The notes beneath the pieces were generated by a model. The model was not told where the DNA came from. It saw only the letters and a list, made by a program, of their open reading frames with translations, and made no database searches. 64,000 nucleotides of DNA, from NCBI GenBank assembly GCA_000004695.1, contig CM000154.2, positions 1,536,001-1,600,000 of the forward strand, written 5' to 3'. A program made the position numbers and the translations under genes. Positions 1 to 60,861 of the stretch are shown here, one piece after another; position 1 is the stretch's first letter, and each line of letters starts with the position of its first letter. The stretch comes from Dictyostelium discoideum (taxonomy: Eukaryota).

Positions 1-3000
1 AAGTATTGTTATTGGGTCATCAGCTCCAATTCAACCAACTAATGCAGGTTTTTACAGTGAATTGAGTGGTGGTGAATATACAATTACAACCATCGATAAT
101 GAATGTGGAGAAAGAAGTATTTCAGTGGAACTGAATCAAGTAGCACCATCATATCATGTAGAATTTGTTGATTTCTCTTGTCCAACTTCACCAAAGATGC
201 AATTAGTAATCAATACCACTCAAAGCTATCAAATTTTTAAAGGAGATGAACCTATATCGAACCCATTTACAGCAGATTATTACGATTCATTTTCAGTAGA
301 ATTGGAATGTGGAGTTAGTTTTGACCTTATTATAAATTTTCCAGATTCATTTCCCCTACTTCAATACACCTATGAAGAAAGTGATTATTGTCAACCATAT
401 ACCATTAATATAATTGGATACAACTCAACACTTTTTCCATCACTTTCAGTTAGTCAAGAAGATTCAACTATCGGATTAGATGCCAATAATTCATTTGAAG
501 CAACAACTGGTAAAATTTATATCTTGCAAGATAATTGTTATAGTTCAGTATTGAAATTTGGTAGAACCTATCCAAAACCAATATATAAATATCTTAATAA
601 CTCTGATTTTTGTGTTGATACTGTTGATATTCAAATTTATAACGCTCAAGATTTCTATTACATTTCATTGGCTCCATTCCAAGGTGAAGGATCAATAAGT
701 TCAAAAAGATATTCAATAAAAGATGGTATTTTTAGAAATGTTACAAATCAAAGACTATACTTGGAGTACAGTTATAGAGGTTGCTCAGATATCTATGGTT
801 TTGAAATTGGTAATAGTAATAGAATGGATAATGATAATTTAGATGTTGAATACAACATTACAAGATATCCAACATGTTATTATCTCTTTGGTGAAGCAGA
901 TGTTAAATTCTATAAAAAGAATACCACTGAATTGGTAGCTTCATTTACTCAAAGTTTTTTCTATTATGGTGAAGGTGCTACTTTTGGTTTCTACAGAGAT
1001 TTCGAATATAATTGTGATGGTTCAGTAAATGGTCTCAATCTTGGTGATTTTAAATTGGAACAAGCTCATGTTAATGTTACAACAGAAACTCAACCAATAT
1101 GTAAATATTCTCAAAATGAAACTACTATACGTATCGATTCAAATACTGAAATTGCAACTTTTAAAATCAATGGTGCCAATGTTTACCCATACAATACCAA
1201 TGGCAATACTTATTATTTTGAATGTAACTCTGGTAATATCACCATTGAACTAACATTCTCAAGACAAACAGAATGCAAACAAATGACAATTTATCATTTG
1301 GTTGAACCAAAACAAGATTTCCACCTTTCATATCAAACAAACAGCGTTACAGATTGTACAATAATGGATGGTTCTATGTTTATTGATGGTTGGGATAATT
1401 TCACCTCTTTACTCATTGATGGATCTCCATATGTCCCAGGTCCAGATTTTTGGCTTGTTGATTTACAGAGTAAAGCTTATTTAATTAATTTTGTAAAAAC
1501 CTTTAGTGATGGATCAACATGTACTGGCTTTGAATATATTTTCGTACCAAGTTTACCTGCTGATATATCCTATACAATCATTAATCAACCACTATGTAGT
1601 AATGATCAAACTGGTACAGTTTCATTTGAATATGCTTCCAACTTCCCAAATCAACCAAATAGAATGCCAATTCAATATGTTTCTCGAGGTGGAATTCAAA
1701 TCAAAGGTACAATTGCAGAAAATTATTACCCTGGAACTTATTTATTCAATGTTTCATATGGTACTTGCTCTTGGGGTGTACCGGTTACATTTAATGAAAT
1801 ACCAATCGATATAACCTATAAACAAGTTTGGAATTATCTTGATGAATCTTGTCAAATTCAAGTTGGTTATCAATTCAGTGCAAATAATTCAATAGCATCA
1901 GGAAATATAGCCCCATATTCCGATGGTTTTACTTCTGTTGGTGGATTATTGTTTGGACAAGTAACAAATTCTTATTTTAATGTCGAAGTTTATTATGCCC
2001 CCTATCAAGCTTGTAAAAAGACATTTGAAATTTCATCTTATGATTCTTATGACCTTTTATATCCACAAGTTTATTATAGCATCGTTAGGAAACCAGATTG
2101 TATGTCATCTGATCATACATATGATATTAAAATTACAAATCCATCAAAATGGGCAAGTGTATCAGTTGGTGGTATGTCAATGGATTCAAATGGTATTATT
2201 AAAAATGTTGTACCCTATATGAAAATGGAAGGAACAACTCTTGGTACCAATTGTAAATATTCTAGTTTATATCGTGATGAAGAGTACAATGAAATTGCGA
2301 TTGAAAGTATTATTACCGATGAGACTTGTCATGGTAGTAAAAATGGTCAAATTCAATTCCCAGATGATCAATATGATTATTATGCATTCAGTATGGTTGA
2401 TGATGAAAGAGTTTTGCTACCATTGGCAAACCCACAAGATAAATATACATTTAAACAAATAACAAGTGAAAGCGTTGACATTGGTAGAGTGGGTAAAAAT
2501 ATATTAAAATCAACTTGTATGCCATTTGCCAATGCAACAATTCAAGGTAGTGAACCAACATTAATTGAAAATATTAATGATCAATGTACAGCAGATGGTT
2601 TAGGTTCAATCAATTATGAAACTTCAATTCTAGGTTTAAATCTCTTAGGTTACATTTATTTAAATGATTCTAGTGAACAACAATTTAATGGTACATTAAA
2701 TGGTATAATACCAGGTTCATATAGAGTTGCAAATTTAAGAGTTACAAATGATTATTGCAAAAGAAGTTTCAATTTATTAGAAGTAAACGTGGGTTCCTCA
2801 ATATTCTCTATTAATATTAATTCATCAATTTGTGAATCAGTTATTATTACACCATTATCTATTTCTTCAAGTTATCCAAATGCTACCTATCAATATAATA
2901 TTACATCACCCACAAATAATTTGCAGCAATACATTCAACCCGATTTATTAAAATTAGATTCATTTGAAGAATTTGGTTTATATACAGTTGCAGTTTCAGA

Positions 3001-8553: not shown

Positions 8554-11500
8554 ATTAACAAATAATCTATTTTATTTTATTTTTTAATAATAAAAATAGA
8601 TACCACTATTCCAACTGCATTTTCATTTTTAAATATATTAAGTAAAAATGGAAAATGTATGACATATGATGAAGGTGCTGATGGATTTGTAAGAGGAGAG
8701 GGAGCAGGTTTGGTTGTTTTAAAGAGTTTAAAAGATGCAATTAAAGATGGAAATAATATTTATTGTATAATTAAAGGTGGAAATACAAATGTTGATGGTA
8801 ATGGAAATGCTGATAAAGCAAACTTCTTTCAACCATCCAAACAATCGCAGTCAGATAATATTAAATTAGCATTGGAATCTATTAAAAAGAAAAGTATGCT
8901 TGATATCGATATTGACTATGTTGAAACTCATGGTACAGGTACACCCACTGGTGATCCAATTGAAGTTGAAGGTATATCAAAGGTTTTTAAAGAAAATCAT
9001 TCACCTGAAAATCCATTATTAATAGGTTCCCTTAAATCAAATATTGGTCACATGGAAGCAGCATCCGGTGTTACTTCATTAATAAAATGTTGCCTAATGT
9101 TCAAAAATAAATCTTTTGCACCAAATGTAAATTTTCAAAAGATTAATCCAAAAATCAAATTAGATGAATGGAATATTAAAGTTGTAACTGAGGCAATTCC
9201 ATTTAAAAAAAATAAAATAACATCAATGGTTGTAAATAGTTTTGGTGTAACTGGTTCAAATTGTTGTTTAGTTTTAACAGAGTCTATTAATAATAATAAT
9301 AATAGTAATGTTGATAAAATAACAAAGAATGAAAAAGAATATTTAATCCCATTTTCAGCAAATTCTAATCAATCATTAAAGAATTATATAGAGGAAGTTT
9401 CTAAAATTGATGAATCTTTACAATTTGAAGATTTTGTTTATAAACAGTTATCAAATAAATCAACATCTTTATTTCAACGTTTTGTAGTGACATCAAAGGA
9501 TTGGAAAGAATTAAAATATAAATTGTCTCAACCTTTACCTTTAAAAGAGATTTCTTCTAGTATTTCAGTTAAAAAACCTAATCCAATTACTGTTTTTGTA
9601 TTTTGTGGTCAAGGTTCACAGTTTAATAAAATGGGGTTAGAATTATATAATAATGATAAGAATTTCAGAAATTATATCGATAGATTTGATAAGAAATTGT
9701 TGGAATACTATGGTTATTCAGTAATATCAAAGTTAAGATCAATTGATGATAACGATTTAATTACAATTCATGATCCAATAATTGCACAACCTGCAACAGC
9801 AATTTTACAAATTTCATTATTCGAACTTTATAAACATTGGGGTATTAATCCATCATTTATAGTTGGTCATAGTCTAGGTGAATTACCAATGGCCTTTTGT
9901 TCAGGTATGATAGATTTTGATACGGTTTGCTATTTACTTTATCATAGATCTTTAGCTCAATCAAAAACCAATGGATGTGGTAAAATGTTATCTTGTAATA
10001 TTAGTAGTGAAGAGTTTGTTAAAAACTATTCACCTCGTTATCCATTTTTAGAAATTGCTTGTTATAATTCGCCAAACTCAATTGTAGTGGCTGGTAAAGA
10101 ATCAATCCTATTAGAACTATCAAAAGAATTTAAAAATTCTGGTATATTTTGCGCAATGTTAGGTTCATTATCATCATTCCATACAAGTAGTCAATTAGAA
10201 GTAAAAGATCATATCTACTCTTTAAAATTTGAATCAAAGGAACCAGTAATACCAACATTTTCAACAGTAACAACTCATTTATTCAATTCAAATAAACTAT
10301 ATGATAATGATTATATTTTTCAAAACATTATGAAACCTGTATTATTTAATGAAACAATTTCAAATCTTTATAAACATGTAGAAAATAATCAACTTGGTAG
10401 TGAGATGATTTTCATTGAATTGGCACCTCATCAAACTTTATCATTTTATTTGAAACAATTAATACCAAAAGATTCAAATTATTTCAGTAATAGTAACTCA
10501 ATTACAATTTTATCCCCTCTTCATAAAAAGAAAAATGATTATTTAGAAATTCAACAAACAATTTCAACTTGTTATTGTAAAGGTTATGATGTTAATTTTA
10601 AATCACAGATCCTCATAGAATCTAAAACAAATATATCGAATAAATCTTTACCACTTTATCAATGGGATGATAAAGAGTTTTGGAAAGATTTAGAAAAACA
10701 AAAAAGAATATTACAAGGTCCACCGATGGATACATTGGGTTTTTCAAATGAAAAATCACCAATTTTAAAATCATTTGAAACCAAAATTGATATAAAGAAA
10801 AAACCATTCCAATATTTAAAAGGTCATATTGTAAAAGGTAAAATTTATTTCCCAGGTGTTGGTTACATAGAGAATTTATTGAAGATGTATCCTTCACAAG
10901 ATATTGATATAGATTCCATGGAATTTGAAGCACCTTTAATTTTAATTGAAGGTATCGTTACATGTTTACAATCAAACGTTTATAAAATAGGAAAGAATGA
11001 ATTCAAAGTACAATTTCATTTCCAAGATCAAAAAACAAAACAATGGATTCAATCTTCATTTGCCAATTATCATTTATCTCATAGAGATGACTTTGATCCA
11101 ACTACCAATAAATTAAACATTCAAAATTTAATTTCAAATAATTGTAATTTAACCAAATTATCAAAGAATCAATTTTATAATTTCATAAAGGCAAAAGCAG
11201 GTTTATCTTATAATGGAGAATTTCAAGGTGTTGAAAAATGTTATTTAGGTGATAATTGTTCATTGGTTGAAATTCCATTTGACACAAGTAATCAAGATGT
11301 TGAAACCAATATTAACATGATTCCAATTTTAGATTCATGTTTACATGGAGTTCATATTCTTTATGTTGAACAATGTCAAATGGTTTTAGAAAAGATTGAA
11401 GGATTAAAATACTATTCATCAACACTCATATTATCAAAACAAAAAGAACAACAGAAATTATATGTTTTCACAAGAATTGAAAATAAAGATTTAATAAACA

Positions 11501-46463: not shown

Positions 46464-47167
46464 TTATTTTTTTAAAATTGATAAAACTGATTTAGTAGCT
46501 CTAAATAAATTTAAAGATTTGATTGTTGATTGAGAGATTTGTTGTCTTCTTTGAAATGCACCAAGTACAGCAGAGGTTGAATAAGTACGATCATATTTTC
46601 TAATACCAGCATTATCGACAGAAGATAAATAGAAAGAACCTGGGAACATATTTGTAGTTTCATCAGATGGTACATAATTTTTAAGATTATGTCTAGTTTC
46701 ACGAAGTGATAATTTCTCTGTGAAAATCTCTGGTTCAACACGAACTCTTTTAGCTAAACGATTCTTTAAATCAACTTTTTCAACGATATGATTAATTGGT
46801 TTTTCAACTTTGAATGAGAATGCAGATGCAGCCAAACCAGAACCATATGAAAAGGTTAATACTCTCTTACCAACTAAATCATTTGATTTTTCATCAAGTA
46901 ATGATAAAAGTCCAGAATAGGTTGAACCACAATAAGTATTACCCAATTGTTTGGCTAATAAAGTGGTTGGTGCAACCTTGGTAGCATAATCATTCTTGGT
47001 GATTGCTGACAATGCTTTTTCAAGTACACTATCGAAATAAGTATCTTCTGGTTTAACATTCTTATAAGCTTCCAATGATGCATATCTTGAATCATTTGGA
47101 TTATTTAAAAAGTCATTATATAACTAAATAAATAAATAAAAAAATAAATAAATAAATTTAGTTAATA

Positions 47168-47199
<32 letters not shown>

Positions 47200-48009
47200 T
47201 TTTTTTTTTTTAATATTTACCATTCTACCAAATGATTTTTGAACCAATTTATTGTATGGTGAATGGAAAAGAGCAAAATCAACTTGATCGAGTGAGAAAG
47301 ATTTACCATATTTCTTTTCAAAGGCTTTGGCATAACGATTGTAACAATTATCGATAGCTCTGAAATAGCAAGAGATTGAGAGTTTACCATCGACACGTGG
47401 ATATTCGGAATCCATATCTGGTTTATAGAAATCGTAGACATTTTCCATATGGACACCACGAAGACCAGATTCAAAGGTGATTGGTGCATTTGGACCAATT
47501 AACATTGCAACAACACCTGCACCACCAGTTGGACGAGCTGGACCTTTTTCATAGACTGCGATATCACCAGCGACAACAATAGCATTACGGCCATCCCAAT
47601 AGGAGGATTCCATCCATTGGAGTGCATTATGGAGTGCAGATGTACCACCATAGCAAGCGTTAATAGTGTCAATACCATCGATTGAAGTATTTCCATGTTT
47701 GGCAAAGAGATCCATTAAAACGGTTTTAACTGATTTGGATTTATCAATAACAGTTTCAGTACCGACTTCAAGACGACCAATTGAGTTTGGATCAACATTG
47801 AATTTATCCATTAAATTATTGACTGCATTTAATGAGAGCGAGTAGATATCTTCTCTGTCACCACAGAATGCCATATTAGTTTGACCGAGACCTAATGTGT
47901 ATTTACCTTGGCTGACACCATCGAATTTTTCTAAATCTTCTTGTGCGACATAAGTACTTGGGAAGTAAACTTCAATTCCGTGGATACCGATATTTTCTGG
48001 TTTTGTCAT
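46464..48009 (-). CDS. hgsA: Hydroxymethylglutaryl-CoA synthase, complement(join(46464..47123,47221..48009)), about 482 aa
   Basis: N-terminal exon [60 protein letters not shown]... carries the catalytic Cys region of HMGCS. It ends ...SFGRM|GTAAAT (47220). Acceptor TATTTAG at 47124. Exon 2 reads [22 protein letters not shown]...[15 protein letters not shown]...[13 protein letters not shown]. The hgsA/hgsB paralogue cannot be told apart by eye. Confidence 0.85.
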
Positions 48010-52756: not shown

Positions 52757-52757
52757 T

Positions 52758-52797
<40 letters not shown>

Positions 52798-55700
52798 TAA
52801 TAAATCTTTGTACTTTAATGGAGATAGATAATTATTAATAAGTTTATTTATGGATTTTTAAGTTTTTTTTTTTTTAAATACCAGTAAAGTTAAATAAATC
52901 GATTTTTGATTATTTAAAAGAAGATGGTATTTTTTTTTTTTTTTTTTTTTTTAATATTGGATTAACAAGATTGATATATGTCCATCTGTGTTAATACGAG
53001 TTTTTATTTAATATTTATTTATAGGCTTATCATTTAAGCTGAAGGGTTATTTTAATCATATGAATTGATCAAAAGATATAATATTTGGGAGAGATGATTC
53101 TGGAATACAATAGTAATTAGCTGTTGTTTTTCTTAGCTTAATCGTTGAGGTGAGAAGGATCTTAGGATCTTTGAAATTATTATGGTCTTTTGCTGATAAG
53201 TTTTTCAGATCTTTTGCTTTTTTGATGTATTCTAGAGTGGCCAATTTGTGCCATTTCTTTAGAAGGGAGCTGTATGATAATGATTCATTTGTTAAAGGAT
53301 CTTCACTGTATATTTGATTGCAAATCCAAATCCAAATGTTGTGGAGGATAAGGGCCATTAGGTTTCTATATGCGAATGATCTGGTTAGATCATAGTCTAT
53401 TGCTTTATAGTTCCATTCAAAGTATTCTTTGTGGAATCTGTGGTTGGCGTAATCTGCATTCACTTCTTGATCTTTTTTGGCTGTCGGTGATAATTTTGGA
53501 GTTATTCTATTAATGAAATTGTTATTTTGCCTAATTCTTGTATGATGCCAGTTTTTACCTTTGCCTGTGGTAATATAGATGAAATTTTTGAGTTTATTTA
53601 TTTTTATGAATTGTTTTGTTTTCTTGCATGAGAAGAACAGGTGACCGTATGGGTCTTTGCTCATATCTTCTTTGCAGAGTGGGCATTGTTTGTTGTGAAG
53701 GTAGTTTATTGGAAGGCATCTGGCATGGAATCTAAACATTGTGTCTCTTGTTTTAGGGTCTTTTATCTTCAGTATGTTGTTGAAGAGTTGATTATAGCTG
53801 TAGCCTCTTAAGTTTAGAGATGATTGGAATTCCGTTTTAGGGATGGTTGGATTTTGGTCTTGAATTGTGGTATACCATTCTGCCAGTGAAAGTGGTTGTC
53901 CATTTTCGTTTTTTATGGATGTGAGATTATTGTTGAAGATTGCTTTTTTGATTCTTATTTTGTTCCATTCGTCTAAGTTTTCTTTTAGGTATCTGGATGT
54001 GAATTTGTTTTTTTGGATTTGATATTCCCAGCTTTTGTGATGAGATGAGTTTGTTTGTTTGGTTTCTAGTGCTAGGATGAATTGGTTTATGATCCAAAGT
54101 TTCTGCGCCAGTTGTCTCAATTCTATATTCCAAATGTTCCAGCCCCCTACTTTTAGTGGGTATCTTGCTCTTTTGGTTCTCATTAAATTAATAACTTGAA
54201 ATCCACTAGCATTTTTGTTGTTTGGTGCCGATAAAAACCATTCGACTAATTTATTGATTTGGTTTAATTCCTCTTCCTTAAAGTTCTCTACATATGAATA
54301 GTAGGTTAATTTAGAGAGTGCGAATGCTTTGAGGATGTTGGTTTTGGTTTTGATTGTTGAGTCAGTGGTTTTCCATAGTACTAAGGATGATCTTATTGTG
54401 TTTAATATTTCTGGCATTTTTCTTGTTATCCCTTTGCCTGTGAAGAAGTATCCCAAGTATCTTTCTGGATTTGTAGATATTGGAATTCTTTGGTTGGTAT
54501 TGTCTGGGTTGCCTATAAGAATTGATGAAGATTTGTCGATGTTTAGTTTTGAGGAAGTGGCTTTGCAAAATGAATTGAAGTGTTGTANNNNNNNNNNNNN
54601 NNNNNNNNNNNNNNNNNNNNNNNNNNNNNNNNNNNNNNNNNNNNNNNNNNNNNNNNNNNNNNNNNNNNNNNNNNNNNNNNNNNNNNNTGGTTGACTTCAT
54701 TGTTTGACTGGATTTCCTCGTTCTTGCGTTTATGTGATGGAGGGATGTTTAGTGTCTTCTCTCTGTTTTCCGAGGATGAATGGATGTTAGTGCTTGTTTT
54801 GTTGGCATTGTCTTTTTGGATGGCGTTGGATGTTGTGGTAGTGGTTGTGGTGGGTTTGACAGATTGAGATTCTGCTGGGTTTTTGGGGGGAAGAGGTTGA
54901 GATGACTTTTTTGCTTGGGCTTTTTTCTCTTGTGTTGATTGTTTATCAGACTGATTGTTTGCTGGGTTGTTTGTTTGTTGTTGTGGTTTTGGTTGAGAGG
55001 ATTTGATTGCTATCCTGTTTTGGGTGTTAGGAGGATCTGTCATCTCATCTTCTAATGGTTCCTCCGTGTTGTTTGTCTCTACTTTCTTGTTTTTCTTTTG
55101 TGAGGAGTAGGTTTTGGTGGCCGTTCTGATGGTAAAGTTTGCGATTTCTGTAATGTGTTGGCCAGATTTCATTTGATCGCCTATTTTGCATTCTATTAGA
55201 CCGAATACTATGAGGTGGTCGGTGGAGTATATAGTATTGTATATTGCATAGGGTATTTCTTCTGCAAAGGCAGTTTTGATGAGGGCGTCCACTATTCCTG
55301 CCTTTTCTCTGGGAATTCTTACTCTTCCTGTGAGGACGTGGAAGTCTCTACTGGAGGTGATGAAGGTTCCCAATTTGCTTCTATCTCTAATGATATTTAG
55401 GAGAGATTGTTCGTTTTTAATCATCAGGTGGATCATTTTTCTAGTTCCTTTGCCTATGTATATCTTGTCGATTGGGATATCGTAGTTTGAGAGTGTTTTT
55501 CTCATTTCTTCTAACCCCTTGAGATCCATTTTGGGGAATTCGAGTGTAATTGGGTAGAATCCGTTGTTCTTCTCGTAGGTTGAGAGCGCAGTCATGTTCA
55601 ATATGGTCTCGCAGTATTTGGAGATGTCTTTGAGGCCTATTGATAGTTTGGGGTAGGTCTCCTTTATCTCTGCTGTTTTTGTGGAGAATTCCTTAATGAA

Positions 55701-55990
55701 GTTCTCCGATGCCTCGTCCATATGGGTGGAGGGGTTGGCCATTTTAGCCGCGTCTGCGTAGGAATTCATCTCGATGGGATTCCTTTGAATCGGCGATTTG
55801 GTAAGTTAGATCTGTAGATCGTGGTGGATTGGTGATTTTTTTTGAAAGATTGGTTAAAATTGACCGAGATTAAGGATAGAAAAGGATGAATTACTTTTCA
55901 CGTGTATCTTGTATCCTCTTGATCGCGGTACGGGTTTTTTAAGATGGTATTGATCTATATCAAATAGTCTTCTGATTGTTTGTAATATGG
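52757..55990 (-). mobile_element. TRE-type (tRNA gene-targeted) non-LTR retrotransposon, orientation minus. Placement ~90-150 bp downstream of a tRNA gene is consistent with the TRE3 class. An assembly gap interrupts it internally.
   Basis: ORF1 (54688..55769, gag-like, MNSYADAAKMANPSTHMDEASENF...) is followed by the C-terminal part of ORF2 (53056..54587), which ends in a CCHC-type zinc knuckle (CPLCKEDMSKDPYGHLFFSCKK). The RT core is missing behind the N gap. The 5' UTR (55770..~55990) is GC-richer than the genome. Plus-strand poly(T) runs at 52757..52792 and 52925..52950 would be oligo(A) on the element strand. The boundaries are approximate. Confidence 0.65.
54588..54687. other. Assembly gap: exactly 100 N inside the retrotransposon, between ORF1 and the ORF2 C-terminal fragment
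   Basis: A run of n characters. A 100-N placeholder implies unknown true length, so the missing APE/RT domains of ORF2 probably lie here. Confidence 0.95.
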
Positions 55991-56073
55991 TGAAATAATA
56001 AACAAAATTTGGTTACGCAGTTGTTTTAATAAGGAATCGATCATGTATACTTAGGTATGGTCCTATAAAATTT

Positions 56074-56146
56074 CGCCTAGACATGGGATCGAACCATGGA
56101 CCTAGCGGTTAACAGCCGCTCGCTCTGCCTACTGAGCCATCCAGGC
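56074..56146 (-). tRNA. tRNA-Asn (anticodon GUU), 73 nt, no intron
   Basis: Minus-strand sequence GCCTGGATGGCTCAGTAGGCAGAGCGAGCGGCTGTTAACCGCTAGGTCCATGGTTCGATCCCATGTCTAGGCG. Acceptor stem GCCTGGA/TCTAGGC (one G-U). D stem GCTC/GAGC. Anticodon stem AGCGG/CCGCT with loop CTGTTAA. T arm CATGG-TTCGATC-CCATG. Discriminator G. TTTT terminator 3 nt downstream. Confidence 0.9.
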
Positions 56147-56236
56147 ATTTTTATATTTTTTTATAAATTTAGCTCCTTCTGATTTTTGATAAAGAAATAA
56201 TAATAATAATAATAATAAAAAAATAAGAATAACAAG

Positions 56237-56278
<42 letters not shown>

Positions 56279-56349
56279 ATAAATAAACTCTCCTAGAACA
56301 CACTCAAATTGAGTGATGTTATTAAAAAAAAAATTTTTGATAAAGAAAT

Positions 56350-56427
56350 GTATACGGCCATACTAGGTTGGAAACACATCATCCCGTTCGATCTGATAAT
56401 TAAATCGACCTCAGGCCTTCCAAGTCC
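56350..56427 (+). pseudogene. 5' two-thirds of a 5S rRNA (retro-fragment), bracketed by direct repeats AAAATTTTTGATAAAGAAA
   Basis: GTATACGGCCATACTAGGTTGGAAACACATCATCCCGTTCGATCTGATAATTAAATCGACCTCAGGCCTTCCAAGTCC has the 5S helix I-III signature (GGCCATAC...CCCGTTCGATCTGA...) but stops at ~78 nt. The flanking motif TTTTTGATAAAGAAA occurs at 56184, 56333 and 56441. Confidence 0.55.
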
Positions 56428-56474
56428 AATTCAAAAAAAATTTTTGATAAAGAAAATTTAATTTTTTTTTTTTT

Positions 56475-56668
56475 TTGATAAATTACCAAATAAGCTTTTT
56501 TTTTTTTCTTTCTTTATTTTAGCTCAAAGCAGATTTTTTATTTATAATGCCTTATCTATTTAAAAAAACATCTTTTATAAACCATCAAATAAGCTTTTTT
56601 ATATTCTTTTTTTATTTTAGCTCAAAGCCAATTTTTTATTTTGGTAATTTATTTCCATAATAATAAAC
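56475..56668. repeat. Two tandem copies of a ~95-bp repeat (CAAATAAGCTTTTTT...TTATTTTAGCTCAAAGC(A/C)NATTTTTTATTT)
   Basis: Copy 1 is about 56475..56570 and copy 2 about 56581..56668, with the shared core visible by eye. Probably a terminal or internal repeat of a decayed element. Confidence 0.5.
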
Positions 56669-56880
56669 ATTGCACAAATTAGCTAGAATTTAAAAAAGAG
56701 AAAATTAAAAACTAACTCTTGAACGGACCAGAGAAATTTTAAATATCCAAATGAATTCCTTAAACAAATAAATAAATTAAGAAAATTTGTTTGAAAAGTT
56801 TATTGTATTCCAGAATAAGTGTTTCCAAGCATAGTATCCTTCGAGCAATTTAATAATTACAACTTATTATTGAATTTGTT

Positions 56881-57047
56881 TATTCAGAGGGTATGTTGCC
56901 ATCATATAGAATAGTTCTGGATACTACTTCAATCACCATTACAAAGAGAGTAGGTGATAATGGATCTCCCTGTTTTACTCCTCTTTTTATAGTAAAGGGG
57001 GGTGTGGGTTTTCCATTGATTTTTATCCTGGTTTGAGTCTGTCAGTG
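56881..57047 (-). mobile_element. Remnant of a non-LTR retrotransposon reverse transcriptase, ~55 codons, truncated on both sides
   Basis: The minus strand translates TRIKINGKPTPPFTIKRGVKQGDPLSPTLFVMVIEVVSRTILYDGNIPSE*, the canonical LINE RT block (GVRQGDPLSPLLF). It is bounded by a stop upstream and a stop after ...PSE. Confidence 0.6.
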
Positions 57048-57365
57048 GTTTCATAATTAGGTTTGTTAGGTTGGTGAGAACTTTGATATGTTGAAGCGTT
57101 CTAAGTATTGATTTGGAAAGAGTTATTTATCTCTGATTTTTTTTTTTTTTTTAATATTATAAAATCAGTGTTTATCCATTAAAGGAAATAAACATTAAAT
57201 AATAGTTTTATTTATGAATTTTAATTTAAAAAATAAAGTGGTTATTCTTTTTTAATTTGAGTTATCAAAGAGTTTTAATTTTAAAATGAAGTGTAGTTAA
57301 AATTGGTTTTGTGAATTGTTCGATTGGGGTTAGATATAATTTCAGTTATTTTTTTTATTTTTTTT

Positions 57366-57613
57366 TATTTTAGTTTATGATAATGAAAAGAGAGAATGAA
57401 TGTATAGAAAATGGAGAAAAAAGAAATAATGTAAATTCATTTAATAGAATCATTAAGCTAACAGTAACTGATGGTATTGAATATAGTGAATTATTATTTT
57501 GGAAGATATTTAGAAATATAGTGACAATAAAATAATAATGTCAATTATTTCTTTTTTATTTCCAAGATATATTTTCGCAATTTTTTTATAATTTCTTTTT
57601 ATTTTTTAATTTT

Positions 57614-57650
<37 letters not shown>

Positions 57651-57790
57651 CATGTATTAATAATAATGACCAATCAGATTCAGCATCTCCTTCAATTACC
57701 ATTCAAGATATTGAAACATTTATAAAAATAACACCAAAAGAAAAATTAAAATCAACATTAGAAACCCAATAAATTCCAACTTTAATAATA
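57366..57790 (+). pseudogene. Truncated, internally deleted duplicate of the 5' part of the downstream gene (58285..60861)
   Basis: 57370..57555 is ~96% identical to 58270..58455 (MKRENECIENGEKRNNVNSFNRIIKLTVTDGIEYSELLFWKIFRNIV then a stop). 57658..57790 matches 59283..59412 (DQSDSASPSITIQDIETFIKITPKEKLKSTL). About 830 bp between the two blocks is missing in the copy. Confidence 0.65.
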
Positions 57791-57975
57791 ATTATCATTA
57801 TTAATAAGTTATAAAAAAAAAAAAAGGCGCTCTTTTGAATAATCAAAAAATGAAATGAATTATTATTATTATTATTATTATTAATAAGTTATAAAAAAAA
57901 ACAATGGGAGAGGGGTGATTTTTACTTTTTTTTGTTTATTTAATTATTTAATTATTTAATTATTTATCTATTAAT

Positions 57976-58134
57976 TTGCATCCATATTAATTTCAGCAGT
58001 CATATTAATTTCAGCAGCCATATTAATTTGCAACCATATTAATTTCAGCAGGCTAAAATAAATATGACTATTAAGTTGCAGCCATATTAATTTCAGCAGC
58101 CATATTAATTTGTAACCATATTAATTTTGGCATG
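57976..58134. repeat. Minisatellite of ~8 tandem units of a 16-18-bp motif CCATATTAATTT(C/G)(A/C)A(G/A)C(A/C)
   Basis: Units such as CATATTAATTTCAGCAG(T/C), CATATTAATTTGCAAC and CATATTAATTTGTAAC are directly visible. The array lies between the pseudogene copy and the intact gene start. Confidence 0.75.
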
Positions 58135-58284
58135 GGACATTCAGTGCGAAAAAAAAAAATAAAAAAAAAAATAAAAAAATGAATAAAAAAATAAATAAAA
58201 AAATAAAAAAATAAAAAAATAAAATAAAAAATAGTATATTGCAACGTAATAAACTATTTTTTTTATTTATTTTAGTTTATAATA

Positions 58285-59059
58285 ATGAAAAGAGAGAATG
58301 AATGTAAAGAAAATGGGGAAAAAAGAAATAATGTAAATTCATTTAATAAAATCATTAAGCTAACAGTAACTGATGGTATTGAATATAGTGAATTATTATT
58401 TTGGAAGATATTTAGAAATATAGTGATCAATAAAATAATAATGTCATTCATGGATAAACGATTTACACCAAAATATAAAACAATTTCAGATGGAGCTGAA
58501 ATGATTCGAAATAATCAATTCAGTCTATTAAAAGATAAAATTAAAATAAATTGCAGATATTTACATTTTTATGACAAAAAAGGTTGTGAGATTGAAATTT
58601 TAAATAAATTATTCAAAACAATCATTAGCGATAATGAATTTTACAGAAAATTCTTTAGAAATCACCTTTTTGAATTTACTAATAGAAAAGTAATCATTTC
58701 ATTAATTACATCAAAGAATTTACAAGTATATCAAATATTTATAGAAGAGTTTAATCATATACCAACTGTTTATGATCTAAAAATAGCAATTTCAGTTGGT
58801 GCTAACAAATTCATTAGATATCTATTAGAACAATCACAACTAGAACAATCAAAATTTAAAATAAACATATCAAAAGATGATTTAGATAATTATAATTCAA
58901 TTGATACAATAGTTGCTCCAAATAAAGTTATTTCAAATTTAAGAAAAATTATTTTAAAAAATTCTTCTAAATTTTTTTTTCCATTTAAATTATTAAATTT
59001 AAAGAGAGATATGTTTAAAGGATTACTATGCTATTTTAATTGTTATCAAAGTTTAAGAG

Positions 59060-59155
<96 letters not shown>

Positions 59156-59770
59156 TTCAAGAACTAACGATTGATACTCTTTTGAGTATTCATTCGAATA
59201 GAGAAAATGAGTTGATAATAAAATCAACATCAACAATAAAATCACTAATTAGAGTTTGTATATTAATATTAAAATTAAAAGCAATGACGAAAACAAACGA
59301 CCAATCAGATTCAGCATCTCCTTCAATTACCATTCAAGATATTGAAACATTTATAAAAATAACACCAAAAGAAAAATTAAAATCAACATTAGGAAACCCA
59401 ATAAATTTCAACTTTAATAATAATGTCAAGTATGATGATGATGGTGATGATGAACAACGTTTTTCTAAATTAATAACATACCAAATTAAAGAATATAATA
59501 GTAATAGAAATAGAATACCACGGAAAGTATTCTATAAATCAAAAAGTGGTCAAATGGTTCAATTAATTTGTAAACATTGTGGAGATTCAAGCTTTACAAC
59601 ATTTTGTTCTTTTTTACTTCATTATCGATACGATCATTCTCGTATGGATTTTCCACAGTTTGAAGACGCCGAAGAAGTTAGTATTAATCCCGGTGGCGAG
59701 CTTGAAATATTATTATATACACCCGATTTAGACAGTAGTTTTTTCAAAAGATTTAATAAACAATCAGAAG

Positions 59771-59863
<93 letters not shown>

Positions 59864-60861
59864 GTTGTAGGTCTAATGATGATGATGATGAACATAAAAC
59901 CTTTATAAAGAAATTATTGGATGAATATTATTCAATATTTTGTAAAGATAGATCAGCCATTATATATTATTATTATTACGATGGATTTAATAATATCAAT
60001 TTAGAAAATAAAAGTTTATACAGTGTAGATTTAAAAGAATATTATGAATCATTTAGATTTGGAATTCCAACATTTGACTTGGTTGGTCATTTTCTTTATG
60101 ACCACCTTAATTTTATATCATTGATAGATATCATGAGATATCCAGATAAAAAGTCAATTTATATTTTATTCTCAAATTGTACAGATAGATTAAAAAAGAT
60201 TCAGTTTATAGATAAAACCATTCAATCAATAAAATCAAATGGTTTACGAAATGTTGAAAACCAATTAACGAATTTCTTTTATATGGTTGTCATGCACGAC
60301 GATTTAGAATTAATAAAGTATTTTTTCAAACAAATAAATGGTTATCAATTACATTTGGGTGGTGGGGGTGGAGATTTACATTACTTATATATGTTTAACC
60401 CAACAATTTATATTGGTTCGGTAGATGTTTTAAATTATTTATTTGAAAATCATAGAGAATATTTTATTGATGATAATTATAACTATTATTCCTATTTCAA
60501 GAATTTAAAATTATTAAAACACTTTGAAGCATTAACACTCAAAGTTCCATCAACATTAAGAATTTGTGAATACTTGGACCACTATACCAGAGGTGATAAT
60601 TTTCAAAATTATATATCACATATCATCAGAAACCGTTTGTATTTGAGTATTGATTTGATTGAATCAATTTTTTGTTTCTCTCCAAAGAATACATTATTCT
60701 CAACCAATTCTCTTCAATCTACAACTATTAATTTTAAAACATACAAACTATTAGCAAACATCTTTTTTTCACAAAAAAAACGCAGAACAATAAAAATTTG
60801 GCCATCACTTTACCAAAGATTTTTTAAACTTTTTAGATTGGATGTTTACAAATCATTTTAA
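58285..60861 (+). CDS. Hypothetical protein with ankyrin-like helical repeats, two long polyN tracts and one C2H2-type zinc finger (CKHCGDSSFTTFCSFLLHYRYDHS)
   Basis: 858-aa ORF. The repeat-like blocks YLHFYDKKGCEIEILNKLF / LKIAISVGANKFIRYLLEQ resemble degenerate ankyrin repeats. CxxC-x12-H-x4-H finger spacing. (AAT)n-coded polyN. Confidence 0.5.

Follow-up and report, generated by a model that had tools for sequence, protein, structure and literature searches.

The only tRNA gene in a 64-kb stretch of the Dictyostelium discoideum genome (assembly GCA_000004695.1, contig CM000154.2, positions 1,536,001 to 1,600,000; 64,000 nucleotides, hereafter the window) has very probably served as a repeated landing beacon for TRE retrotransposons. 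Around this tRNA-Asn(GUU) gene, two TRE3 integrations would have occurred downstream and two TRE5 integrations upstream, one of the latter in the form of a chimera with 5S rRNA. ARAGORN and Rfam agreed on a single tRNA, tRNA-Asn(GTT), in the 64 kb and on its minus-strand location, which had also been proposed in a first-pass annotation of this DNA. That annotation described the site as one hit more than once by position-specific integration; this description stood, and it now includes a TRE5 fragment and a triplicated target-site duplication (TSD) that had been missed. The locus offers a compact natural record: three TRE families appear to have integrated at this one tRNA gene at least four times, independently and at precise positions, with the same pair of nicks apparently reused exactly by two TRE5 families. 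The arrangement of TRE3 and TRE5 elements is known, ordinary Dictyostelium biology, whereas the 5S/TRE5-A chimera is modestly novel; a literature search found no Dictyostelium report of a long interspersed nuclear element (LINE) co-mobilising a cellular RNA.

The window has a G+C content of 24% and its only run of undetermined bases is a gap of 100 N. The retroelement proteins encoded in it were 96-99% identical to D. discoideum proteins. Comparison loci (cited by L numbers, as are the contigs L001 and L010 described below) were taken from an independent D. discoideum assembly, GCA_054883475.1, and were reached via proteins homologous to the two open reading frames (ORF1 and ORF2) of the downstream element. 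Direct repeats were grouped by repeat search into families (D5, D7, D10, D11, and D14) and tandem arrays were sought with Tandem Repeats Finder. Coordinates of all features are collected in Table 1.

Two TRE5-type inserts upstream of the tRNA gene

Upstream of the tRNA gene, three exact copies of the 15-bp sequence TTTTTGATAAAGAAA were separated by two inserts, and no other copy was present in the window even when one mismatch was allowed. The same succession of TSD, insert, TSD, insert, and TSD was found in L006, with two TRE5-A ends. The published TRE5 site lies 44-54 bp upstream of the tRNA gene; the distances have a strong mode at 47 bp, and the element is in the opposite orientation.

The insert nearer to the tRNA gene (insert 1), also in opposite orientation to it, reads (TAA)n-AAATAAGAATAACAAG-A40-CTATAAATAAACTCTCCTAGAACACACTCAAATTGAGTGATGTTATT-A10 and was 89-91% identical to segments of L004 (18972-19115) and L009 (16159-16025). 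The L009 copy of this family, 1185 bp long, is oriented opposite to a tRNA-Thr gene, with its 5' junction 46 bp upstream and a TSD of TTTTGCTTTAT; the L004 copy, likewise in opposite orientation, lies 47 bp upstream of a tRNA-Ile gene once an LTR (long terminal repeat) element is subtracted, and its TSD begins GTCATAAAA. The window fragment itself comprises only the untranslated 3' end; the ORF2 tail of the L009 copy showed 39% identity to the TRE5-A ORF2 tail (E 4e-46). The termini of the two families differ (...GAGTGATGTTATT-An in insert 1 vs. ...GCGTTATCCAATTC-An in TRE5-A). Since its relatives sit 46-47 bp upstream of tRNA genes and show ORF2 homology to TRE5-A, insert 1 was classified as a non-A TRE5, to all appearances a severely 5'-truncated TRE5-B or TRE5-C. 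The LTR element of L004 (16141-18734) is internally deleted and DGLT-A-like, with two 100% identical 259-bp LTRs and a primer-binding-like site, TGGCGACATCG; it lies 14 bp upstream of the tRNA-Ile gene and has pushed the older TRE5-type fragment away from it.

A single insertion and a later unequal crossing-over or replication slippage might also account for three TSD copies and two inserts, as the 23-bp units formed by A8 and the TSD are 100% identical (family D14) and tandem structures are frequent at the comparison TRE loci. However, the inserts are unrelated and carry the termini of two different TRE5 families, which duplication cannot make; a simple duplication is thereby excluded, and we regard this origin as very improbable. 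TRE5-A, moreover, repeatedly integrates at an identical position (PMC5391098), and a tandem with a shared TSD exists in L006. There (1990-2580, minus strand), two tandem TRE5-A 3' ends are each followed by the same TSD, CTTCTGTGAAAT, a structure that reads as an independent example of repeated TRE5 integration at identical nicks.

The putative 5S rRNA/TRE5-A chimera

The distal insert (insert 2) begins with a piece of 5S rRNA. A 5S fragment on this far side of the tRNA gene had been listed as debris by the first-pass annotation; its presence was borne out, but it forms part of a polyadenylated, TSD-flanked retrocopy with a TRE5-A terminus. The Rfam 5S match (56350-56433, plus strand) scored 36.4 bits at E 1.8e-5, slightly less than the gathering score (38), and lacked 43 positions of the model. 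In the search for a 5S comparator, neither the text of papers nor contigs of bacterial genomes gave a match, and a metagenome scan gave L010 (contig Ga0307414_10074637), an environmental contig presumably from a dictyostelid ribosomal DNA (rDNA) element, in which a full-length 5S gene at 2073-2191 scored 95.9 bits. Window and comparator were identical at 75 of 76 positions over nt 1-76, with abrupt divergence from nt 77. Because the 5S part stops at nt 76 of about 119 and lacks the 3' strand of helix I, insert 2 was considered a dead retrocopy and not a gene. The extra T in front of it is the same base as at -1 of the L010 genomic 5S gene, and may be a non-templated addition or reflect an early transcript start.

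The 5S part is followed by CCAATTC, or TCCAATTC if the shared T is counted, which is identical to the 3' terminus of TRE5-A. In four of five independent TRE5-A copies the 3' end read ...AATTGCGTTATCCAATTC-A(n), the fifth ending in ...CCATTTC. These copies, located in L003, L006, and L007, were recognised by position and by segments repeated in the untranslated regions (UTRs) at both ends, 5' and 3', and we take the segments to be the A-, B-, and C-modules of TRE5-A. Modules of these names have been described for the element (PMC5911963). The TRE5-A copy of L007 lies about 50 bp upstream of a tRNA-Phe gene in opposite orientation. No TSD separates the 5S part of insert 2 from its TRE5-A part, and a 15-bp TSD flanks the insert as a whole at the TRE5 site. 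The 5S piece was also considered as the target of the adjacent TRE5 fragment and rejected, as the fragment turns its 3' end towards the 5S piece, which is the wrong orientation, and the distance is 16 bp instead of 37-41 bp.

Taken together, the structure is best explained by a template switch of the TRE5-A reverse transcriptase (RT) onto 5S rRNA. Such an origin has been proposed for mammalian U6/LINE-1 chimeras and for LINE-1/5S chimeras, the latter having a 3'-truncated 5S part and TSDs (PMC13174262). The junction might instead have formed before reverse transcription, by RNA ligation or RNA recombination, with the fused RNA being retrotransposed afterwards. Both mechanisms have been proposed for U6/LINE-1 chimeras, each giving fusions in the same orientation (PMC13174262), and the position of the breakpoint inside 5S, where microhomology is almost absent, would be in keeping with ligation to a 5S fragment produced by cleavage; the DNA product alone would be the same for template switching and RNA ligation. 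This route nevertheless seems unlikely to us, as it needs a TRE5-A RNA that was cut 7-8 nt from its poly(A) and was still recognised by the RT.

Retention of the 5' 76 nt together with a LINE-matching tail also follows the blueprint of a SINE (short interspersed nuclear element), and 5S-headed SINEs occur in other eukaryotes (cited in PMC13174262). Against membership of a 5S-derived SINE-like family mobilised by TRE5-A, a search for a second copy in the remainder of the window and in tRNA-rich loci of another isolate (162 kb) found none, and the score of the 5S piece lies below the Rfam threshold. The stop at nt 76 would, in addition, leave the piece without box C of the 5S promoter, which is located at roughly +80 to +97. 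We give such a family very little credence. Even less probable is a capture at the DNA level of sequence from the rDNA palindrome, such as filler at a break, with no retrotransposition. Each cell contains about 100 copies of the extrachromosomal rDNA element (PMC5391098) and the base before 5S +1 (T) matches that of the L010 gene; on the other hand, the fragment starts within 1 nt of the transcription start without further rDNA flank, and the TRE5-A terminus, the poly(A) end, and the perfect 15-bp TSD at a TRE5 site all oppose this origin.

The chimera would constitute direct evidence, at the sequence level, that co-mobilisation of a cellular RNA, as by mammalian LINE-1, is also within the capacity of a target-specific amoebozoan LINE. 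It suggests a genome-wide screen of the region about 47 bp upstream of tRNA genes for TCCAATTC-A(n) preceded by non-TRE sequence. It is conceivable, though we hold it to be improbable, that the TRE5-A RT switches habitually onto RNA polymerase III (Pol III) or ribosomal RNAs at Pol III genes, and that such chimeras form a recurrent uncatalogued class or the seed of a 5S-headed SINE. If so, habitual switching would provide a natural read-out of the RNAs near the TRE5-A integration complex.

TRE3 elements downstream of the tRNA gene

The main downstream element (52930-55940, minus strand) has its 5' end at 55940, 133 nt past the 3' end of the tRNA gene and in the same orientation. This confirmed the two-ORF non-LTR element that had been proposed there, with ORF1, a 100-N gap, and an ORF2 C-terminus with a zinc knuckle, all on the minus strand; its distance and orientation fit TRE3, which integrates 40-150 bp downstream from tRNA genes and shares their orientation (PMC5911963). 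Sister copies behaved alike, with starts 96 nt downstream of tRNA-Ser in L005, 86 nt downstream of tRNA-Phe in L007, 88 nt downstream of tRNA-Cys in L008, and 62 nt downstream of a tRNA that ARAGORN left untyped in L009. Including that of the window, five TRE3 copies thus lie 62-133 bp downstream from their tRNA genes, each in the same orientation.

In the window copy, ORF1 was 96-99% identical to two ORF1 proteins of 417 and 358 aa (P0021 and P0022). The ORF2 C-terminus, an uninterrupted frame between 54585 and its stop codon at 53056, contains the CCHC knuckle CPLCKEDMSKDPYGHLFFSC, and showed 99% amino-acid identity to DDB_G0285835. Pfam searches with the window's own ORF1 and ORF2 tail gave no significant match, the domains falling in the gap. 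The 3' part (54587-52930) aligned to L005 12427-14083 and the 5' part (55940-54688) to L005 8830-10085, and both also to L006, L007, L008, and L009. In full-length copies, 2341 bp lie between the positions matching the two flanks of the gap (L005 10085 and 12427), so that the 100 N represent no less than this length. For annotation, at least 2.3 kb of what is probably an intact TRE3-A should be assumed within the gap. The -1 frameshift, endonuclease, and RT, hidden by the gap in the window, were observed in the L005 reference copy. There, ORF1 (frame 0, 429 codons from stop to stop) ends at element nt 1422, and ORF2 (1261 codons, -1 frame, i.e., frame 2) is open from nt 1344, giving an overlap of 79 nt. 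L005 ORF2 carries an Exo_endo_phos domain at 35-280 (weak, E 0.0018, full profile), an RVT_1 domain at 551-798 (E 1e-33), and a C-terminal CCHC motif. A -1 frame of ORF2 relative to ORF1 is also described for TRE3-A (PMC5911963). The window copy is apparently young and full-length.

When the tail was left out, four full-length copies measured 5230-5231 bp; the lengths published for the consensus sequences are 5229 bp (TRE3-A), 5279 bp (TRE3-B), and 4734 bp (TRE3-C) (PMC5006619, Table 1). The family is abundant, with 37 members in the ORF1 cluster and at least nine AX4 gene models, all members being named 'hypothetical protein'. From length, abundance, frameshift, position, and orientation, the main element is most probably a TRE3 of subfamily A, formerly called Tdd-3. 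It would be unlikely to belong to TRE3-B or another TRE3 subfamily: TRE3-B is close in size and the family letter was assigned from these five properties instead of by alignment to a named TRE reference, but the observed length deviates from the TRE3-A consensus by no more than 2 bp and falls 48 bp below that of TRE3-B, and the high copy number fits TRE3-A, the most abundant TRE3.

Two further observations concern TRE3-A at the comparison loci. Head-to-tail arrays of two to three near-identical copies per tRNA gene were found in L006 (5322-13906), L008 (9830-20341), and L009 (4534-15082). In L005, a TRE3-A 3' UTR relic of about 40 nt (8780-8829; ...AATAAATATTAAATAAAACTCGTATT-A12) lies directly upstream of the full-length copy, as a leftover of an earlier copy at the same site.

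The element does not extend to 52757, as had been assumed, its 3' end being the A23 tail at 52930; the sequence at 52759-52878 is a separate, older fragment. This stub was 75% identical to L004 15087-15190 and could be aligned with window 57153-57253 and with L004 15470-15700. The stub and its alignable relatives in L004 and at 57153-57253 all end in ...GATTNATNAATATT-A(n). A candidate for its decayed TSD is CTGGTA(W). The unique flank past the A34 tail, in the sense direction, recurs in L001, a Logan contig; the 1.2-kb Logan contig found via a neighbouring 144-aa ORF stops in the A34 tail. About 40 nt of flank separate the distal TRE3-A TSD copy from the 86-nt stub, and before the arrival of TRE3-A the stub would have been about 170 nt from the tRNA gene, inside published TRE3 ranges. 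As the stub has its own A34 tail and belongs to another family, two downstream integrations were counted, the younger one nearer to the tRNA gene.

The spacer between the tRNA gene and the main element contains GATCGATTCC, a weakly supported candidate for an external B box. In the window, each strand has a match of 8/10 about every 4 kb; for the 122-nt spacer, the chance of one is about 0.03. B-box-like motifs at a similar offset were present after tRNA-Phe in L007 (GGTTCAATTCC) and after tRNA-Ser in L005 (AGTTCGGGTCC).

Proposed history of the locus

We propose target-primed reverse transcription as the route of every insertion at the locus. On the downstream side, the first to insert would have been a TRE3-like element of a second family, leaving about 86 nt and A34, and TRE3-A would then have entered between this stub and the tRNA gene, 133 nt from the end of the latter. 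Upstream, both TRE5 events would have started from an identical pair of staggered nicks (36/37 and 51/52 bp from tRNA +1), duplicating the same 15-mer. The distal event, a dead-on-arrival 5S chimera, would be the older of the two: the TRE5-A RT would have primed on the poly(A) of TRE5-A RNA, copied its last 7-8 nt (TCCAATTC), switched to 5S rRNA at nt 76, and run off the 5S 5' end. The 136-bp truncated TRE5-B/C would have followed, reusing the tRNA-proximal TSD copy left by the chimera; given that the TRE5 position is set from the tRNA, we infer that the proximal, non-A TRE5 is the younger insert.

Several points weigh against this history. The order and independence of the events are deduced from the one allele present in the window. 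The link between the chimera and TRE5-A consists of 7-8 nt noticed post hoc, with an estimated chance of about 4e-5 for the base composition, and the landing point lies inside 5S rRNA, at nt 76, where microhomology amounts to only 1 nt. The TRE3-A letter carries the limit on its assignment given above. Furthermore, in view of the head-to-tail arrays of TRE3-A at sister loci, more than one copy may lie within the gap, or the two halves of the window element may belong to different copies. Finally, three TRE3-like scraps (56654-57253) are on the wrong side of the tRNA gene and leave part of the 'hotspot' unexplained.

Relation to known systems

As compared with TRE3-A, the window element presented no substantive difference other than being broken by the assembly gap, with the letter deduced as described: two ORFs, the -1 frame shift, ORF2 with endonuclease, RT, and zinc knuckle, the oligo(A), the short TSD, and the length (5230 bp vs. 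a consensus of 5229 bp) are alike. Both upstream inserts share with TRE5 elements (TRE5-A and TRE5-B/C) the opposite orientation, the 5' junction at 51 bp, the 15-bp TSD, and severe 5' truncation; for the proximal insert, the likeness extends to its family, which has TRE5-A ORF2 homology and sits 46-47 bp upstream of two other tRNA genes. They differ in that the distal insert has only the last 7-8 nt of TRE5-A and the proximal one is probably B or C.

The chimera resembles mammalian U6/L1 and 5S/L1 chimeras in being a bipartite insert made in one event, with TSD and poly(A), at the target site of the LINE itself, and in having a small RNA joined to the LINE 3' end, with the 5S part 3'-truncated. 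In contrast, the LINE is here a tRNA-targeted amoebozoan element that contributes 7-8 nt, and the 5S part is in sense and broken at nt 76; for human 5S/L1 chimeras, antisense orientation predominates and the breaks are at about nt 46 or 90 (PMC13174262). By this analogy, the chimera may be regarded as a further case of something known from mammalian LINE-1, newly seen in a target-specific LINE of an amoebozoan. The tRNA-targeting LTR elements DGLT-A and Skipper-2 follow the same 'safe haven' logic, as the DGLT-A-like element of L004 illustrates; nevertheless, no LTR element was found at the tRNA-Asn gene of the window, and the elements there are without LTRs, integrase, or RNase H.

Table 1. 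Positions of the tRNA gene, the TRE-derived sequences, and other features, numbered from the first nucleotide of the window
Feature	Coordinates	Strand	Remarks
A34 tail of the older 5'-truncated TRE3-like insertion	52759-52792	-	T34 run on the plus strand
Older TRE3-like 3' UTR stub, second family, not TRE3-A	52793-52878 (5' limit approximate)	-	Family D7
Distal TSD copy of the probable TRE3-A, AAGATGGTA(TT)	52921-52929	.	Same 9-11 nt recurs at 55941-55951
A23 tail of the probable TRE3-A	52930-52952	-	T23 run; alignments to full-length copies stop here
3' part of the probable TRE3-A: ORF2 C-terminal 509 codons and 103-nt 3' UTR	52953-54587	-	99.0-99.9% identity to sister copies
Assembly gap, 100 N	54588-54687	.	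ORF1 end, endonuclease domain, and most of the RT domain hidden
5' part of the probable TRE3-A: 5' UTR (55940->55770) and ORF1 from ATG 55769	54688-55940	-	97.4-99.3% identity
tRNA-proximal TSD copy of the probable TRE3-A, AAGATGGTATT	55941-55951	.	Abuts the element 5' end directly
Candidate external B box, GATCGATTCC	56042->56033	-	31 nt past the tRNA end; 8/10 match to GTTCGAATCC
tRNA-Asn(GUU), Pol III target	56074-56146	-	Rfam RF00005, 64.3 bits; ARAGORN 56073-56147
15-bp TSD copy 1, TTTTTGATAAAGAAA	56183-56197	.	37-51 bp upstream of tRNA +1
Insert 1: TRE5-family 3' end, 136 bp, A10, apparently not TRE5-A	56198-56333	+	5' junction 51 bp upstream
15-bp TSD copy 2	56334-56348	.	Exact; family D14
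Insert 2: extra T (56349), 5S nt 1-76 (56350-56425), CCAATTC (56426-56432), A8 (56433-56440)	56349-56440	+	
15-bp TSD copy 3	56441-56455	.	Exact; family D14
Two-copy AT-rich direct repeat, about 47-60 nt per copy, 98-bp spacing	56487-56641	.	Families D5, D10, and D11
Decayed TRE3-like ORF2 C-terminal fragment, ...KVYCIPE*VFPSIVSFEQFN	56654-56862	+	62% to TRE3-A, L005 13746-13964
Decayed TRE3-like RT fragment, ...IKRGVKQGDPLSPTLFVMVIE..., with stop codons	56893-57125	-	70% (nt) to TRE3-A RT, L005 12102-12315
A16 tail (57137-57152) and about 100 nt of 3' UTR end, second TRE3-like family	57137-57253	-	80.5% to L004 15056-15175

Sequences beyond the chimera and neighbouring genes

Beyond the third TSD copy, a tandem repeat of about 95 bp had been reported. 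Two partial copies 98 bp apart are indeed present, the repeat being weaker than described and not transposon sequence: family D5 covers 47 nt at 89% identity (copies at 56497 and 56595), Tandem Repeats Finder did not call the repeat, and it was rejected as a transposon module, matching no TRE copy. Both repeat segments (56593-56623 and 56497-56527) resemble the 5' flank of the tRNA gene at 56145-56175 (GCATTTTTATATTTTTTTATAAATTTAGCTC vs. GCTTTTTTATATTCTTTTTTTATTTTAGCTC, 84% for 56593-56623). They could be relics of duplicated tRNA upstream regions or reflect chance similarity in AT-rich DNA.

Three decayed TRE3-like scraps follow. The ORF2 fragment at 56654-56862 was also 70% identical to L004 14840-15009. 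The RT remnant with the GVKQGDPLSP block, pointed out by the first-pass annotation, was recovered on the minus strand (about 57125->56893, with stops), but neither it nor the other two scraps were counted as integrations at this tRNA gene because the upstream side is not a TRE3 position. A hidden tRNA gene was considered for these scraps and discarded, since no tRNA or relic of one was detected in 56400-58300 at E<=10. Twin priming was likewise rejected for the opposed fragments at 56654-57125, in which the sense/antisense order is wrong and a terminal poly(A) is absent.

Pseudogene-like pieces at 57377-57535 and about 57655-57770 duplicate parts of an 858-codon ORF at 58285-60861; one of them reads MKRENEC.ENGEKRNNVNSF..IIKLTVTDGIEYSELLFWKIFRNIV and the other NDQSDSASPSITIQDIETFIKITPKEKLKSTL. 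A homology search with this ORF, dominated by low-complexity words, gave paralogues only. These pieces of the 58285 gene point to a local rearrangement or partial duplication beside the scraps. On the other side of the TRE cluster, a two-exon gene at 46464-48009 (minus strand) has a translation that we take to resemble hydroxymethylglutaryl-CoA synthase. It represents ordinary single-copy context, and the TRE cluster lies in a gene-dense region.

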